Source of the DNA: a virus
Taxonomy: Duplodnaviria > Heunggongvirae > Uroviricota > Caudoviricetes
Reading direction: 5' to 3' (one strand)
IMG/VR virus record: IMGVR_UViG_3300029653_000099
Length of the DNA: 6,604 nt
Each line of letters begins with the position of its first letter. The first letter of the stretch is position 1. The notes under the pieces are model-generated. The model was not told the origin of the DNA, did no database searches, and saw only the letters and a program-made list of their open reading frames with translations. Shown one piece after another: positions 1 to 6,604 of the stretch. Both the position numbers and the translations under genes were made by a program.

Positions 1-90
1 GATGGTCAGGTTGCGGAGGCTATGGCCCTGGTACGAGCGCTGAACAAAATGACGAAAGCAGGTATGCCTGAAAGCGTGCGTATTGCCTGA
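1..90 (+). CDS. 3' end of an ORF cut by the window edge (frame 1, ...DGQVAEAMALVRALNKMTKAGMPESVRIA, stop TGA 88..90); may be a displaced upstream segment of pacA or the end of a separate upstream gene
   Basis: Frame 1 is open from position 1 to the TGA at 88..90. Too short to classify by content. Confidence 0.3.
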   Translation, partial: DGQVAEAMALVRALNKMTKAGMPESVRIA

Positions 91-232
91 AAACACAACC
101 CGCTACGGGGGAGACTTACCCGAAATCTGATTTATTCAACAAAGCCCCCTGGATGATGATGGTGAACGCTTTGAATTCGAAGCTGGCGATTACCTGATAG
201 ATAACGTTGAAGCGCGGAAGGCCGCGCGCGCT

Positions 233-946: not shown

Positions 947-2430
947 TGGCCAGAAGTTGCGTAACGGACCCACGTTGGCGCGAGCTTGTGGCGCTATATC
1001 GTTATGACTGGATTGCGGCCGCTGATGTGTTGTTTGGGAAGACACCAACCTGGCAGCAGGATGAGATCATTGAGTCCACGCAGCAGGACGGCAGTTGGAC
1101 AAGTGTGACCTCCGGCCATGGTACTGGTAAATCGGATATGACGAGTATCATTGCAATACTCTTCATCATGTTTTTCCCCGGCGCTCGCGTCATTCTGGTC
1201 GCTAACAAAAGACAGCAAGTCCTTGATGGTATTTTCAAATACATAAAGAGCAATTGGGCTACTGCTGTTAGCAGATTCCCGTGGTTGTCGAAGTATTTCA
1301 TTCTTACAGAAACGTCTTTTTTTGAGGTGACTGGCAAGGGTGTTTGGACAATATTGATAAAGTCCTGTCGCCCCGGAAATGAGGAGGCGTTGGCTGGTGA
1401 ACACGCCGATCATCTCTTGTATATCATCGACGAAGCGTCGGGTGTGAGTGATAAAGCATTCAGTGTGATAACAGGTGCGCTGACCGGTAAGGATAACCGT
1501 ATTCTGCTTCTTTCCCAGCCTACGCGACCTTCAGGCTATTTCTACGATTCACACCACAGACTAGCTATTCGCCCGGGAAATCCTGATGGATTGTTTACTG
1601 CGATAATACTGAATAGTGAAGAATCTCCGCTTGTAGATGCAAAATTTATACGAGCAAAACTTGCGGAGTATGGCGGTCGTGATAACCCCATGTACATGAT
1701 CAAAGTACGTGGTGAATTTCCCAAATCTCAAGATGGCTTTCTTCTTGGTCGTGATGAGGTTGAGCGGGCGACGCGGCGAAAGGTCAAGATTGCCAAAGGA
1801 TGGGGCTGGGTTGCATGTGTTGACGTTGCTGGTGGCACAGGACGAGATAAGTCCGTTATTAATATCATGATGGTGTCCGGCCAGCGAAATAAACGCCGTG
1901 TAATCAACTATCGTATGCTGGAATACACAGACGTTACAGAAACGCAGTTAGCCGCCAAGATTTTCGCAGAATGTAACCCAGAACGGTTCCCGAACATAAC
2001 CATAGCTATTGATGGCGATGGCTTGGGGAAATCGACGGCTGATCTAATGTACGAACGCTATGGCATTACCGTCCAGCGTATCCGCTGGGGTAAAAAGATG
2101 CACAGCCGTGAAGATAAAAGCCTTTATTTCGATATGCGCGCTTTCGCGAATATTCAGGCGGCAGAAGCTGTAAAATCAGGGCGTATGCGGCTTGATAAGG
2201 GGGCTGCGACTATAGAGGAAGCATCAAAGATACCGGTAGGGATAAATTCCGCAGGTCAATGGAAGGTGATGTCAAAGGAAGATATGAAGAAAAAACTCAA
2301 CCTGCACTCACCGGACCATTGGGATACATATTGTTTCGCTATGTTGGCGAACTATGTTCCCCAAGATGAAGTGCTTAGCGTCGAAGACGAAGCGCAGGTT
2401 GATGAAGCTCTGGCATGGCTTAATGAATAA
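946..2430 (+). CDS. pacB: Terminase large subunit PacB (494 aa), ATPase plus nuclease
   Basis: 494-aa ORF matching the length I recall for P1 PacB. Walker A-like P-loop (SGHGTGKS) and Walker B-like (LLYIIDEAS) near the N-terminus, acidic residues in the C-terminal half consistent with an RNaseH-like terminase nuclease. Start overlaps the pacA stop. Confidence 0.88.
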
Positions 2431-2455
2431 CAATTTGACCATGCCGGATGGAAAA

Positions 2456-3307
2456 CTATTGCGCGCTTTCGGGGTTGCTGTTTACTGGCTGCCCCTTCTT
2501 AGTTTTACGGCTGCGCGTAACTGATGCGGCTGATTTGACCTTTTTCTCTTCGCGAGTGATGGCAATTTGTTTTTTTACATTTTCAATATCTGCCAGGCGA
2601 TATATTTTTGCCTGCGGCCAGCGGTCGCAGATGATCGGTTCTATAGAGTCATAAAGGCTAAATTTTGCTTTCTCGAATTTCCCGTTGATGATGATTCCAT
2701 CACGGAGAGTTTCATCGCAGATAAACACACCACACAGCGGCACATGGTAACTAACTGATTTACCATCATTGTAGTTAGGGCTACTGGAAATGTAATGGAC
2801 GCGCAACATTGTTTCGCTAAAGCCGTGTACACGCATACGGAATTTTTCATCCTCCGGGTACTGCTTCATTAGCTCTTTTGTTGCTTCCAGGTTCTCTATG
2901 TATTTCGCACTGTGCTCATTGATCCCCGCGCTTTTCTGGATGCGAATGTCCTTATCAATCAGATGAATAATGCGGCCAGCGGTCATGTTGACGCTGTTCA
3001 CAGCTTCTGTCTGATAAGTTGTAACCTTACGCACACCGCGAAGGATGTTAGGCACTGGATATAAAATAGTCTTTGGGATATTGAGGTCTGGGTACTGTTC
3101 CAGTTCCCGCGCCATTAAAGTCCATTTATCAATTTCAGCCTGAATGCTGTCCGTTTCTTTGAACGGCAGAACGACAACCGGGCGAACAGGACGACCGTCG
3201 CTGGCGGCATCAACGTGTTGGGCGCGTGCAACAGCTTTTTTTAGAAAGAGATCCCTGAAGCTGACGAACTCCTGGTACAGTTGTTCGCCGTAGACATAAT
3301 TTATCAT
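2456..3307 (-). CDS. c1: C1 repressor of lysogeny (283 aa), immC
   Basis: 283-aa ORF convergent with pacB. Length and N-terminus (MINYVYGEQLYQEF...) match my recollection of P1 C1. Strong RBS GGAGGAGGA 6 nt upstream of the ATG on the minus strand. Lies next to coi and loxP-cre as in P1. Confidence 0.88.
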   Translation of the reverse strand: MINYVYGEQLYQEFVSFRDLFLKKAVARAQHVDAASDGRPVRPVVVLPFKETDSIQAEIDKWTLMARELEQYPDLNIPKTILYPVPNILRGVRKVTTYQTEAVNSVNMTAGRIIHLIDKDIRIQKSAGINEHSAKYIENLEATKELMKQYPEDEKFRMRVHGFSETMLRVHYISSSPNYNDGKSVSYHVPLCGVFICDETLRDGIIINGKFEKAKFSLYDSIEPIICDRWPQAKIYRLADIENVKKQIAITREEKKVKSAASVTRSRKTKKGQPVNSNPESAQ

Positions 3308-3329
3308 TGATCCTCCTCCAGAATTGACA

Positions 3330-3372
3330 TGGCCAACAACTCACAGCGGATTACACTGGGAGTTGTTGGCCA
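3330..3372. repeat. Perfect 13-bp inverted repeat (TGGCCAACAACTC / GAGTTGTTGGCCA) with a 17-nt spacer, in the coi-c1 intergenic region
   Basis: Arms at 3330..3342 and 3360..3372 are exact reverse complements. No T-tract follows on either strand, so it is not a canonical intrinsic terminator. Confidence 0.85.
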
Positions 3373-3374
3373 CC

Positions 3375-3418
3375 ATTATAGAAGGATCCAACGAAAATAA
3401 TAGATTTATTAGTGCATT
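3375..3418 (-). promoter_or_regulatory. Putative c1-proximal sigma70 promoter (-10 TATAAT on the minus strand at 3375..3380) with an overlapping C1-operator-like site (AATGCACTAATAAATCT, 14/17, minus strand 3402..3418)
   Basis: Perfect TATAAT hexamer on the minus strand about 70 nt upstream of the c1 start. Operator-like 17-mer overlaps the -35 region and the coi stop codon. The -35 hexamer itself is weak. Confidence 0.35.
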
Positions 3419-3627
3419 TATTGTGAGTCTGGCTGGTTAGTGGCCATGAGATATTCGATTGTGTCAGTGAGATCATCCAGGTCGTCTTGGGTGATGCGGT
3501 ACTCCTGATTGGATATCTTTGAGTAGTGTTCAGCAATGGCGCGGGCAGCGTCGGTTTCGGCGGGGTCTACAGATAAAGCGTTAGAGCAATGTCTAACGTC
3601 GTCGATGGTTGGTGGAATGAAAGCCAT
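3418..3627 (-). CDS. coi: Coi, C1 inactivator (69 aa)
   Basis: 69-aa ORF directly upstream of c1 on the same strand. Length and position match P1 coi as I recall it. RBS GTGAGG 7 nt upstream of the ATG on the minus strand. Confidence 0.8.
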   Translation of the reverse strand: MAFIPPTIDDVRHCSNALSVDPAETDAARAIAEHYSKISNQEYRITQDDLDDLTDTIEYLMATNQPDSQ

Positions 3628-3820
3628 AATTATGCCTCACTGTATTGACAACACAGAGCCTGAAGCTCTGACCTACTGTTTCACCCATGATCCATGCTGG
3701 GGTAATCCTACAACATTGCGCTGTGTGTAAGATGAGCAATGCATAGCTGTAATGCCGTTGTATAAGGTTTCCCTGTTTGCTCATTTCCTTCTGAGCCGCT
3801 CTACAACGCTGAAGACACAT
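3593..3820 (-). CDS. Possible small ORF in the imcA/imcB position upstream of coi (75 aa; alternative internal start at 3784); coding status doubtful
   Basis: Only ORF over 60 aa on the minus strand between coi and the operator-bearing promoter. Overlaps the coi start by 35 nt. No convincing RBS (GAAGGAA abuts the internal ATG with 1-nt spacing). Cys/Trp/His-rich composition atypical of a real protein. Confidence 0.2.
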   Translation of the reverse strand: MCLQRCRAAQKEMSKQGNLIQRHYSYALLILHTAQCCRITPAWIMGETVGQSFRLCVVNTVRHNYGFHSTNHRRR

Positions 3821-3858
3821 TAAATAGTGAATCCAAAGTTGTATTACGAAACGGCGGC

Positions 3859-3888
3859 AAAACTATAATTTATTAGAGCAATTGTCAA
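3859..3888 (-). promoter_or_regulatory. Putative immC promoter driving coi-c1: -35 TTGACA (minus strand 3883..3888), near-consensus C1 operator ATTGCTCTAATAAATTA (minus strand 3866..3882, 16/17) in the spacer, -10 TATAGT or TAGTTT
   Basis: Perfect -35 hexamer directly abutting a 16/17 operator match, followed by a -10-like hexamer at 15 to 17 bp spacing. Oriented toward coi and c1. Operator consensus is from recalled P1 literature. Confidence 0.5.
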
Positions 3889-3948
3889 ACAACTATGAAA
3901 AACAATCCAGTTTTTGGCTGGTGGAGTGGGATTTTTCTCTCAAAATTT

Positions 3949-3965
3949 ATTGCTCTAATAATTCT
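3949..3965 (+). promoter_or_regulatory. C1 operator copy ATTGCTCTAATAATTCT (15/17), inverted relative to the 3866..3882 copy
   Basis: Direct sequence match to the asymmetric operator consensus. Forms a back-to-back pair with the minus-strand copy 66 bp away. Confidence 0.6.
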
Positions 3966-4008
3966 TGATTTTTATGCGCAGCTGGACGTAAACTCCTCTT
4001 CAGACCTA

Positions 4009-4042
4009 ATAACTTCGTATAGCATACATTATACGAAGTTAT
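4009..4042. other. loxP: loxP site-specific recombination site (13-bp inverted repeats ATAACTTCGTATA flanking the 8-bp spacer GCATACAT)
   Basis: Exact 34-bp match to canonical loxP. Lies about 420 bp upstream of the cre start, as in P1. Confidence 0.97.
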
Positions 4043-4060
4043 CTTAAGGGTTATTGAACA

Positions 4061-4154
4061 TGATCAATTTACCTGTAAATCCATACAGTTCAATACCTTA
4101 TCAGGTCAAATAGTGATCACTTGATCATTTGATCAAGGTTGCGCTACGTAAAAT
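4061..4154 (+). promoter_or_regulatory. Dam-site cluster and putative cre-region promoter: four TGATCA hexamers (4061, 4114, 4122, 4130), the last three at exact 8-bp spacing, overlapping the -35 region of a -10-like TAAAAT (4149..4154)
   Basis: GATC at 4062, 4115, 4123 and 4131. Recalled literature describes cre promoters regulated by Dam methylation. The -10 and -35 assignment is my own reading. Confidence 0.45.
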
Positions 4155-4199
4155 CTGCGAAATGTTGGCAGTGTTTGTGCTCCAGATTTCGCGTAGCGC
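4141..4199. repeat. Imperfect 17-bp inverted repeat (GCGCTACGTAAAATCTG / CAGATTTCGCGTAGCGC, 15/17) with a 25-bp spacer, ending 33 nt upstream of the 73-aa ORF
   Basis: Arms at 4141..4157 and 4183..4199. Candidate dimeric-protein binding site or RNA stem-loop. Confidence 0.7.
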
Positions 4200-4231
4200 A
4201 CTTAGCACCACCAATCAATCAGAGGTGAAAA

Positions 4232-4453
4232 ATGGGATATTCAGCTGCTAAAGTGTCCACTCATCTTGAGCTTGAGAAAAATCGTGGTTACTGGCGGGCA
4301 AAAGGGTTTGATCGTGATAGTTGTCAACTGTCATTATCGCGCGGTGAAGAAAAGATAGAACGCAGTCGCGGTCGTTGGCGTTTCTATGACGAGAACCATA
4401 AACAGGTAAAGGCAGAGCCGATCCTGTACACTTTACTTAAAACCATTATCTGA
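4232..4453 (+). CDS. Hypothetical small basic protein (73 aa) immediately upstream of cre
   Basis: ATG preceded by a strong RBS (AGAGGTGA, 6-nt spacing). Stop lies 7 nt before the cre ATG, so the two are likely co-transcribed. Lys/Arg-rich sequence. No family recognised. Confidence 0.5.
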   Translation: MGYSAAKVSTHLELEKNRGYWRAKGFDRDSCQLSLSRGEEKIERSRGRWRFYDENHKQVKAEPILYTLLKTII

Positions 4454-4460
4454 GTGTCAA

Positions 4461-5492
4461 ATGTCCAATTTACTGACCGTACACCAAAATTTGCCTGCAT
4501 TGCCGGTCGATGCAACGAGTGATGAGGTTCGCAAGAACCTGATGGATATGTTCAGGGATCGCCAGGCGTTTTCTGAGCATACCTGGAAAATGCTTCTGTC
4601 CGTTTGCCGGTCATGGGCGGCATGGTGCAAGTTGAATAACCGGAAATGGTTTCCCGCAGAACCTGAAGATGTTCGCGATTATCTTCTATATCTTCAGGCG
4701 CGCGGTCTGGCAGTGAAAACTATCCAGCAACATTTGGGCCAGCTAAATATGCTTCATCGTCGGTCCGGGCTGCAACGACCAAGTGACAGCAATGCTGTTT
4801 CACTCGTCATGCGACGGATCCGAAAAGAAAACGTTGATGCCGGTGAGCGTGCAAAACAGGCGCTGGCGTTCGAACGCACTGATTTCGACCAGGTTCGTTC
4901 ACTCATGGAAAATAGCGATCGCTGCCAGGATATACGTAATCTGGCATTTCTGGGGATTGCTTATAACACCCTGTTACGTATAGCCGAAATTTCTAGGATC
5001 AGAGTTAAAGATATCTCACGTACTGACGGTGGGAGAATGTTAATCCATATTGGCAGAACGAAAACGCTGGTTAGCACCGCTGGTGTAGAGAAGGCACTTA
5101 GTCTGGGGGTAACTAAACTGGTTGAGCGATGGATTTCTGTCTCTGGTGTGGCTGATGATCCGAATAACTACTTGTTTTGCCGTGTCAGAAAAAATGGTGT
5201 TGCCGCGCCATCTGCCACCAGCCAGCTATCAACTCGCGCCCTGGAAGGGATTTTTGAAGCAACTCACCGATTGATTTTCGGGGCTAAGGATGACTCTGGC
5301 CAGAGGTACCTGGCCTGGTCTGGACACAGTGCCCGTGTCGGAGCCGCGCGAGATATGGCCCGCGCCGGAGTTTCAATACCGGAGATCATGCAAGCTGGTG
5401 GCTGGACCAACGTAAATATTGTCATGAACTATATCCGTAACCTGGATAGTGAAACAGGGGCAATGGTGCGCCTGCTGGAAGATGGCTATTAG
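4461..5492 (+). CDS. cre: Cre tyrosine site-specific recombinase (343 aa)
   Basis: 343-aa ORF, near-identical to P1 Cre as I recall it (MSNLLTVHQNLPALPVDATSDEVRKNLMDMFRDRQAFSEHTWK...), with the cognate loxP site upstream. A few apparent substitutions relative to the canonical sequence (for example LQRP vs LPRP, IAEISRI vs IAEIARI, LIFGA vs LIYGA, C-terminal GY vs GD); these rest on memory. Confidence 0.97.
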   Translation: MSNLLTVHQNLPALPVDATSDEVRKNLMDMFRDRQAFSEHTWKMLLSVCRSWAAWCKLNNRKWFPAEPEDVRDYLLYLQARGLAVKTIQQHLGQLNMLHRRSGLQRPSDSNAVSLVMRRIRKENVDAGERAKQALAFERTDFDQVRSLMENSDRCQDIRNLAFLGIAYNTLLRIAEISRIRVKDISRTDGGRMLIHIGRTKTLVSTAGVEKALSLGVTKLVERWISVSGVADDPNNYLFCRVRKNGVAAPSATSQLSTRALEGIFEATHRLIFGAKDDSGQRYLAWSGHSARVGAARDMARAGVSIPEIMQAGGWTNVNIVMNYIRNLDSETGAMVRLLEDGY

Positions 5493-5509
5493 CCATTAGC
5501 GCGCAAATG

Positions 5510-5526
5510 ATTGCTCTAATTCTTTG
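5510..5526 (+). promoter_or_regulatory. C1-operator-like site ATTGCTCTAATTCTTTG (13/17; first 11 positions exact) between cre and the downstream ORF
   Basis: Direct match to the conserved 5' half of the operator consensus, 17 bp upstream of the next ORF start. Confidence 0.4.
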
Positions 5527-5542
5527 GTATTTATGGTGACAT

Positions 5543-5854
5543 GTGAGAAAGGATTTCAACATCGACGGAAAATATGTAGTGCTGTCTGTAAGCACTAATA
5601 TTCAGTCGCCAGCCGTCATTGTCACTGTAAAGCTGAGCGATAGAATGCCTGATATTGACTCAATATCCGTTGCGTTCCCTGTCAAAAGTATGCGTAGTGC
5701 TGAACATTTCGTGATGAATGCCACCGAGAAAGAAGCACGGCGCGGTTTTGCCAAAGTGATGGCCGAGTTTGGCGAATTTTTGGGGCACGTTGACAAAGCC
5801 CTTTCAATCAGTTCAGCAAGGTCCAAAGCGTTAACAGCTTCCATGCTGAAATAA
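5543..5854 (+). CDS. Hypothetical protein (103 aa) downstream of cre, in the position of P1 cra (cre-associated)
   Basis: GTG start with GGTGA 3 nt upstream, so the exact start is uncertain. Same strand as cre; stop TAA at 5852..5854 followed by a hairpin. No motif recognised. Confidence 0.5.
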   Translation: MRKDFNIDGKYVVLSVSTNIQSPAVIVTVKLSDRMPDIDSISVAFPVKSMRSAEHFVMNATEKEARRGFAKVMAEFGEFLGHVDKALSISSARSKALTASMLK

Positions 5855-5879
5855 AAAAAGCCTGGCAAGGAGCCAGGCT
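5853..5879 (-). terminator. Intrinsic terminator oriented for the minus strand: 8-bp stem (AGCCTGGC / GCCAGGCT), 5-nt loop, then a 6 to 7-U tract on the minus strand
   Basis: On the plus strand it is an A7 tract followed by the hairpin with no downstream T-tract, so it is canonical only for leftward transcription. It sits right at the 3' end of the plus-strand ORF. Confidence 0.5.
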
Positions 5880-5984
5880 GCACAAAAGAGCGGGTTTGTA
5901 TTCCGCATTCAATCAATCAAGAAGGAGTATAGTACACAGGTACTGAAGTGAAAAAATGTGATTCGCGATAAACAAATAACTTTA

Positions 5985-6014
5985 ATTGCTCTAATTGATT
6001 GCTATAATTGAGCC
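5985..6014 (+). promoter_or_regulatory. C1-controlled ref promoter region: operator-like ATTGCTCTAATTGATTG (5985..6001, 14/17), overlapping second partial copy ATTGCTATAATTGAGCC (5998..6014), and extended -10 TGcTATAAT (6000..6008)
   Basis: Perfect TATAAT with an upstream TG, inside two overlapping operator-like repeats about 95 nt upstream of ref. Consistent with recalled C1 repression of ref through operator Op2. Confidence 0.55.
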
Positions 6015-6068
6015 GCAGTTTTTGTCAACTACGAAGACGCTGCCATTACTTCACTCCTTGACATCATT

Positions 6069-6094
6069 GGCGGCCATTAGGCCGCCTTTTTTTT
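6069..6094 (+). terminator. Intrinsic terminator-like hairpin (7-bp GC stem GGCGGCC / GGCCGCC, loop ATTA) followed by T8, ending 5 nt before the ref ATG
   Basis: Stem arms are exact reverse complements, followed by eight consecutive T on the plus strand. Confidence 0.65.
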
Positions 6095-6099
6095 GCCAT

Positions 6100-6537
6100 A
6101 TGAAAACAATCGAACAAAAACTTGAACAGCGCCGCGAGTGGCAGAAGGCAGCCAGAGAACGAGCGATCGATCGGCAACGGGAAAAGTTGGCTGACCCCGC
6201 CTGGCGAGAATCGCAATATCAGAAAATGCGGGATTCTATCGACCGCCGTATCGCTAAACAGAAAGAGCGCCCACCAGCCAGCAAAACGCGGAAAAGTGCG
6301 GTAAAAATAAAATCTCGTGGCTTGAAGGGGCGAACACCGACGGCGGAGGAACGGACCATCGCCAATGCTCTTGGCACTCTCCCCTGCATTGCCTGCTACA
6401 TGCATGGAGTAATATCTGAAGAGGTGTCTCTGCACCATATCTCCGGTCGTACCGCGCCGGGTTGTCACAAAAAGCAATTGCCCCTTTGTAGATGGCACCA
6501 CCAGCATGCAGCACCGGCTGAAGTAAGAGGGGTTTGA
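6100..6537 (+). CDS. ref: Ref-like HNH endonuclease (recombination enhancement function); 145 aa from the MKTIEQ start, apparently shorter than P1 Ref
   Basis: N-terminus MKTIEQKLEQRREWQKAARERAIDRQREKLADP... and the HNH-like core (LHHISGRTAPGCHKKQLPLCRWHHQHAAP) match my recollection of P1 Ref. A highly basic N-terminal region precedes the core. The TTG at 5995 in the ORF track is an in-frame extension through the operator and terminator and is unlikely to be the real start. Confidence 0.75.
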   Translation: MKTIEQKLEQRREWQKAARERAIDRQREKLADPAWRESQYQKMRDSIDRRIAKQKERPPASKTRKSAVKIKSRGLKGRTPTAEERTIANALGTLPCIACYMHGVISEEVSLHHISGRTAPGCHKKQLPLCRWHHQHAAPAEVRGV

Positions 6538-6577
6538 GGGCCAATGATGTAAAAAACCACGCTAAGGAGGTAATTCA

Positions 6578-6604
6578 TTGTTTAAATTGAGATTTAACGG
6601 CCTC
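6578..6604 (+). CDS. Possible 5' end of a gene starting with TTG after a strong RBS (AAGGAGG 6564..6570, 7-nt spacing); runs off the window
   Basis: Consensus Shine-Dalgarno followed by TTG TTT AAA TTG AGA... Only 9 codons are visible. Confidence 0.3.

Follow-up and report, generated by a model that had tools for sequence, protein, structure and literature searches.

Truncation of ref in a P1-like phage-plasmid at the end of a Tn3-family transposon, and a possible recurrent target site

We analyzed a DNA stretch of 6,604 nt, referred to here as the window, from the virus record IMGVR_UViG_3300029653_000099. The window covers the immunity and lox region of a P1-like phage-plasmid, with the distal part of pacA followed by pacB, c1, coi, cra, cre, c8, and ref. 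From position 147 to position 6604, it is 100% identical to CP034659, a plasmid of E. coli ATCC 98082, and it is 99.9% identical to CP061756 from strain 873.10. The ref allele belongs to the phiW39/SJ46 type, with 99.2% identity to those phages and 95.3% identity to P1. Both ends of the window contain DNA of other origin (Table 1).

At the left end, all P1-like matches begin at position 147, where the end of an IS903B-family element interrupts pacA, the gene for a packaging (pacase) subunit. Neither the retrieved relatives nor any PLSDB plasmid has this joint at 146/147, and the source of the window therefore differs from all of these relatives. Wherever this region is present in a retrieved carrier of the 145-amino-acid Ref described below, it contains an intact pacA of 397 codons' worth of protein (397 amino acids); the IS903B insertion is therefore a second insertion, private to the molecule from which the window derives. 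The interruption of pacA would probably abolish packaging.

Table 1. Positions of the inserted elements and of the features around the end of ref in the window
Feature	Position	Strand	Description
IS903B-family (IS5-like) element end	1-146		Non-P1 DNA
IS903B-family transposase C-terminus	Stop at 88-90		...LNKMTKAGMPESVRIA
IS903B-family terminal repeat	129-146		GATTTATTCAACAAAGCC
Truncated ref pseudogene	6100-6537	+	Codes for Ref residues 1-143 followed by Gly-Val; these last two codons and the TGA come from the transposon repeat
TAAGA target pentamer	6524-6528		Left copy of 5-bp target-site duplication; right copy beyond the window
38-bp Tn3-family terminal inverted repeat	6529-6566		Transposase end of the element, GGGGTTTGAGGGCCAATGATGTAAAAAACCACGCTAAG; GGGG...TAAG
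tnpA 3' end	6562-6604	-	Last 13 codons (translation ...RPLNLNLNNELPP) and TAG stop
AAGGAGG and TTG frame	6564-6604 (AAGGAGG 6564-6570; frame from 6578)	+	Spurious start, antisense to the tnpA end

At the right end of the window, the ref frame starts with an ATG at 6100 to 6102 and stops with a TGA at 6535 to 6537, giving a product of 145 amino acids that ends in ...HHQHAAPAEVRGV (AAPAEVRGV). In P1, ref has 561 nt and encodes 186 amino acids (NC_005856, 2077 to 2637; the chain of PDB 3PLW also has 186 residues), which agrees with the length that the initial annotation had given and with its reading of the frame as cut short. Residues 1 to 143 align to residues 1 to 143 of P1 Ref (3PLW_A, E = 9e-86). 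The last two residues and the stop are foreign, because the frame reads the codons GGG GTT TGA from the terminal repeat of the adjoining element. The truncated protein matches positions 1 to 64 of the 103 positions of the Pfam domain RecA_dep_nuc (PF16786), compared to positions 1 to 102 in P1 Ref, so 39 of the 103 nuclease-domain positions are lost; the earlier suggestion that part of the nuclease domain is missing is thus borne out.

Ref consists of a disordered N-terminus of 76 residues and a globular HNH domain of 110 residues (PMC4330346). His153 coordinates the active-site Zn2+, and an H153A variant makes no double-strand breaks (PMC3973344, PMC4330346); this variant does not cut the displaced strand, yet it still nicks one strand (PMC3973344). 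Like P1 Ref (3PLW), the truncated form has a complete unstructured, DNA-binding N-terminus (residues 1 to 76), but it differs in having lost the last 43 of the 110 residues of the globular domain, including His153. The complete domain with its HNH metal site is therefore absent, and given the structure and the H153A phenotype, the 145-amino-acid Ref is probably inactive; a loss of this extent would very probably prevent either folding or activity.

The exact 145-amino-acid sequence occurs in 277 blocks of public assemblies, and a Tn3-family transposase gene follows it in most of the nine places listed. The ref junction is carried by 5 of 5,426 complete E. coli genomes. A homologue search with the 145-amino-acid Ref merged truncated forms into a cluster of 2,341 members, which gave no distribution of truncation points. 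In RefSeq, the same sequence carries the label 'Ref family ... incomplete; missing C-terminus'.

We compared the window with 19 phage records and about 1,200 plasmid records, and in every comparison the similarity to P1-like ref stops at 6528/6529. The alignment of positions 6100 to 6604 to P1 and P1-like plasmids that had been proposed in the initial annotation puts the loss of identity at 6529: P1 continues as GTAAGAG followed by AAAAATACCC, and the window continues as GTAAGAG followed by GGGTTTGAGGG. The uninterrupted P1 sequence at this site is GAAGTAAGAGAAAAATACCC, in which the TAAGA pentamer corresponds to nucleotides 425 to 429 of ref. Only 4 of the approximately 1,200 plasmid records extend past 6529, and all of them do so through the same foreign sequence.

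This foreign sequence has the features of the end of a Tn3-family transposon, for which 38-bp repeats and 5-bp AT-rich duplications are hallmarks (PMC4133298). The repeat begins exactly at the junction, starts with GGGG, and ends with TAAG; identical 38-mers lie next to a Tn3-family transposase gene in CP061756 and CP086387, and 17 of the outer 18 bases are identical to those of a second Tn3-type repeat. A 150-nt query spanning the junction has partial matches in more than 700 E. coli records; of the matches listed, those confined to its transposon part (positions from about 6528 on) carry the annotation 'Tn3 family transposase'. The TAG stop of tnpA is the complement of 6562 to 6564, inside the inverted repeat. 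Although the window contains just 75 bp of the element, including 13 codons of the transposase gene, the same C-terminus occurs in a 1,002-amino-acid protein of CP086387 that has the DDE_Tnp_Tn3 domain (PF01526, E = 4.5e-153) together with DUF4158 (PF13700).

The element shares several traits with Tn3 and Tn2, namely the 38-bp GGGG...TAAG repeat, a tnpA stop within the repeat (TAA in Tn3), the combination of DDE_Tnp_Tn3 and DUF4158, the 5-bp AT-rich duplication, and, in its intact copy in CP086387, a serine resolvase gene beside tnpA. It differs from Tn3 in the sequence of its repeat and in its cargo: the intact copy carries a SIR2-HerA defence pair rather than bla. PGAP and PLSDB name the transposase no more specifically than 'Tn3 family transposase', with no Tn number, and we found no description of the element in the literature on Tn3 with the heat-resistance locus.

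Because the window ends within the element, the second repeat, the duplication, and the cargo were read from relatives with an identical left junction, not from the molecule of the window itself. In CP061756, the remainder of ref and most of mat (P1 2507 to 3336, 96.4% identity) lie about 27.3 kb away. They are preceded there by an inverted second Tn3-type repeat and a second TAAGA, in the arrangement ...CAGACCCC-TAAGA-GAAAAATACCCC (with a longer left flank, ...CTTAGCGTACGTTTTCGTTCCATTGGCCCTCAGACCCC-TAAGA-GAAAAATACCCC). The right junction of CP034659 is the same, and that of CP010179 reads ...CAAACCCC-TAAGA-GAAAAATACCC. These relatives thus carry both the 5-bp duplication and the second inverted repeat beyond the span of the window. 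RefSeq annotates the two genes as 'Tn3 family transposase ... missing N-terminus' and 'Ref family ... missing N-terminus', and it treats both halves of ref and the transposase gene as pseudogenes. The repeat in the window (6529 to 6566) is identical to its partner at 36 of 38 positions in CP010179 (counted from the sequence) and at 29 of 38 positions in CP061756 (22572 to 22609). Since the match in CP061756 is only 29/38, its insert may be a hybrid bounded by the ends of two different Tn3-family elements, yet its TAAGA duplication is clean.

The DNA carried between these junctions varies among carriers. In CP061756, the insert begins with a remnant of tnpA (224 amino acids), IS26, and a locus of heat resistance (tLST) with clpK, sHSP20, yfdX1/2, hdeD-GI, trx-GI, kefB-GI, psiE-GI, and htpX; these are followed by IS26, ISKpn26, betT, and the arsenic operon arsRDABC. 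The same left junction is present in CP010179, in CP086387, and in the chromosome record of NCTC9040, and tnpA is either intact or cut by IS26 at differing points, with lengths across carriers of 224 amino acids, 1,692 nt, 2,346 nt, and full length. The intact form in CP086387 (12527 to 19836) comprises tnpA, the resolvase gene tnpR, and the SIR2-HerA pair (PADLOC E values of 2e-155 and 2e-245). In this plasmid, an anti-phage system is thus located on a transposon within a phage-plasmid. Strain AW1.7, a classic heat-resistant strain, also has this tnpA end adjoining IS26 and the locus of heat resistance.

Kamal et al. (2021, PMC7984374) described pFec10, a P1-derived IncY plasmid that carries the TLPQC/tLST locus for heat resistance together with arsenic genes and numerous insertion sequences. 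Its cargo is of the same kind as that of CP061756, CP010179, and CP086387; the words 'ref', 'Tn3', and 'transposon' gave no matches in that paper. In the chromosome record of E. coli NCTC9040 (LR134247, 2.18 to 2.22 Mb), the junction between ref and the transposon occurs at a locus where the P1-like genes have recombination genes of the lambda type as well as other plasmid replication genes as neighbors. This locus is either an integrated P1-like element or a join introduced during assembly.

We consider the insertion of a Tn3-family transposon into a P1-type ref gene to be the explanation of the early stop, with a probability of about 0.95. The initial annotation had proposed a mosaic junction, possibly one where different cargo replaces the ref-mat junction of P1. 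A junction with foreign DNA does exist at 6529, but a mosaic produced by homologous recombination does not fit a breakpoint that coincides with the outermost base of a 38-bp repeat, nor does it fit the duplication of TAAGA in relatives. Replacement by recombination or deletion, with the rest of ref gone, would be easy to accommodate in a window that ends 75 bp beyond the junction. These inserts have clearly undergone rearrangement by IS26 and other insertion sequences, and in CP086387, which has the same left junction, the 3' end of ref was not found in the approximately 62 kb examined; later rearrangement can therefore remove it. We nevertheless regard such a breakpoint as an unlikely origin of the junction. 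The joint lies exactly at the outer end of a complete repeat, and the closest records, CP034659 and CP061756, retain the 3' end of ref behind a second repeat and a second TAAGA, so any loss would be secondary to transposition. With mat and the 3' end of ref still present about 27 kb away in these relatives, the event is better described as an insertion into ref than as a replacement of the ref-mat junction.

Two further readings of the sequence dispense with a transposon or add a gene to it. Truncated proteins of the Ref family occur at many lengths in public data, and a naturally short or frameshifted Ref, or a sequencing error, might also produce an early stop with P1 DNA continuing downstream. 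This is hardly credible for the window: none of the 19 phage records shows P1-like ref similarity past 6529, the few plasmid records that pass this point all do so through the transposon end, the downstream bases match Tn3-family ends in hundreds of unrelated plasmids, and the same 145-amino-acid product recurs in the 277 blocks noted above. The other reading takes the AAGGAGG and TTG that follow ref as the ribosome-binding site and start codon of a new cargo gene, as the initial annotation did. The motif is present, 26 nt after the ref stop rather than the 27 nt first given, and it is a perfect 7-nt Shine-Dalgarno-like sequence located 7 nt 5' of a TTG (6578 to 6580) whose frame is open to the end of the window. 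In CP061756 and CP086387, however, the frame has only 22 codons (MFKLRFNGLNSPFIISSGSVNV) and is wholly antisense to tnpA. At the inner end of the repeat, tnpA ends with two proline codons and part of its stop, and AAGGAGG is therefore simply their complement. The window contains one match to AAGGAGG compared to 0.53 expected, and 85 of 200 shuffled sequences contain at least one; the occurrence of the motif is at chance level. No record that we examined annotates a gene here. We therefore see no gene start in this overlap of the inner repeat end with the tnpA stop; a real cargo gene at this position is highly improbable, and the AAGGAGG/TTG pair appears to be without function.

For the transposon insertion, the sequence comparisons suggest the following course of events. 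A Tn3-family replicative transposon entered the ref gene of a P1-like plasmid of the phiW39/SJ46 type at TAAGA, and the ref frame now reads two codons of the repeat (Gly-Val) and then TGA. The ancestral insert was presumably an intact transposon such as that in CP086387. IS26 is likely to have remodelled the insert later, given that the point at which tnpA is cut differs from carrier to carrier. The 145-amino-acid remnant of Ref may still be expressed from the C1-repressed ref promoter, and it would be inactive as a RecA-dependent double-strand nuclease. Beyond position 6604, we would expect tnpA (intact or cut by IS26), cargo, a second repeat, CCCC-TAAGA-GAAAAATACC, the 3' end of ref, and mat. 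Disruption of ref by a transposon is in itself ordinary, and it is already annotated in the form of the RefSeq pseudogenes.

A comparable case, known for a long time, is phage P7 (phi-Amp), a P1-type phage-plasmid in which Tn3 lies within ref and the C-terminus of Ref is likewise altered. The P7 record (NC_050152) states for Ref that the 'C-terminal region ... extended as compared to P1 Ref at Tn3 insertion'. Tn3 occupies 1120 to 6069 of that record, in the last codons of ref, and it has 38-bp repeats and a 5-bp duplication of TGAAA. The two cases differ in the transposon, in the position of the insertion, and in the consequence for the protein: the insertion in P7 is about 115 nt further downstream, near codon 180 of 186, whereas that in the window follows codon 143, and P7 Ref retains the whole nuclease domain with a tail of 36 amino acids, whereas the nuclease domain in the window is broken.

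The site used in the window has also been used by other elements. Six types of junction fall on the pentamers AAGTA and TAAGA, which are 3 bp apart, and they represent five or more separate insertions of Tn3-family elements, with three types of repeat and in both orientations. The heat-resistance-associated transposon is inserted at TAAGA in a P1-type ref allele, and the same transposon end is inserted at TAAGA in the window, in the phiW39-type allele that has diverged by about 5%. A complete 4.95-kb Tn2/Tn3 is inserted at TAAGA, which is duplicated. At AAGTA, there are insertions of Tn2/Tn3-bla and of an element with a third repeat type. In addition, a metagenome contig carries the heat-resistance-associated transposon in the opposite orientation at TAAGA in a P1-type allele; here the element may have been inverted in place, in which case this is no new insertion. 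For the two insertions of the same transposon end in different alleles, the flanks begin to differ 16 nt to the left and 12 nt to the right of the joint, and 703 bp of the transposon are identical. This pattern argues for separate insertions rather than for one insertion spread by recombination; a single insertion followed by exchange of the flanks is unlikely with allele differences reaching so close to the joint.

These cases came from several searches. A query with the right junction identified eight E. coli plasmids in which Tn2/Tn3-bla abuts ref 3 nt upstream of the site in the window, with AAGTA duplicated. In an unbiased scan of IMG/VR, we also looked for all ends of the GGGGT type located up to 30 nt downstream of a conserved 14-mer of ref. 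The matches derived from ref occurred at two offsets only, and they comprised the junction type of the window (three contigs), the 4.95-kb Tn2/Tn3 at TAAGA, and the third repeat type at AAGTA. Two upstream control windows of 30 nt gave no junctions in IMG/VR, even though an island of equal AT-richness and a perfect TAWAA pentamer lie within them, and a downstream control window of 30 nt gave two matches, neither of them derived from ref. A pattern scan of metagenomes gave one ref-derived match among the matches listed, which were mostly chance matches.

From these data, we lean slightly toward the view that nucleotides 422 to 429 of ref (codons 141 to 143; window positions 6521 to 6528) are a nucleotide-precise hot spot for Tn3-family transposons in P1-like phage-plasmids and a main point at which these take up cargo, with blaTEM and the locus of heat resistance as examples. 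Because the survey was small and the way in which the cases were found introduced some bias, we treat the hot spot as a lead, not as a result. AT-richness does not account for it: five other islands in ref are at least as AT-rich, and two of them gave no junctions in IMG/VR. The Tn1/Tn3 consensus TTWTA/TAWAA does not account for it either, with three perfect matches and 27 pentamers with one mismatch in ref. Because neither property singles out the site, the transposase may be guided to it by the structure of the local DNA or by a protein bound there. Pfeifer et al. (PMC9600943) include 'Ref family' among the numbered genes that they mapped around resistance genes in P1-like elements; we did not find a nucleotide-level description of the ref target site in the literature.

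For annotation, these findings mean that the open reading frame at the end of the window is a ref pseudogene and that the apparent start downstream of it should not be called. The insertion in ref is the route by which one widespread lineage of P1-like plasmids gained a locus for heat and chlorine resistance, which is relevant to food safety. It also removes a nuclease linked to ciprofloxacin sensitivity, in that Ref has been reported to raise the ciprofloxacin sensitivity of P1 lysogens (PMC4713147). If the hot spot is real, it would provide a natural system for investigating what directs the choice of target by Tn3-family transposons, and it would predict where P1-like phage-plasmids acquire cargo.
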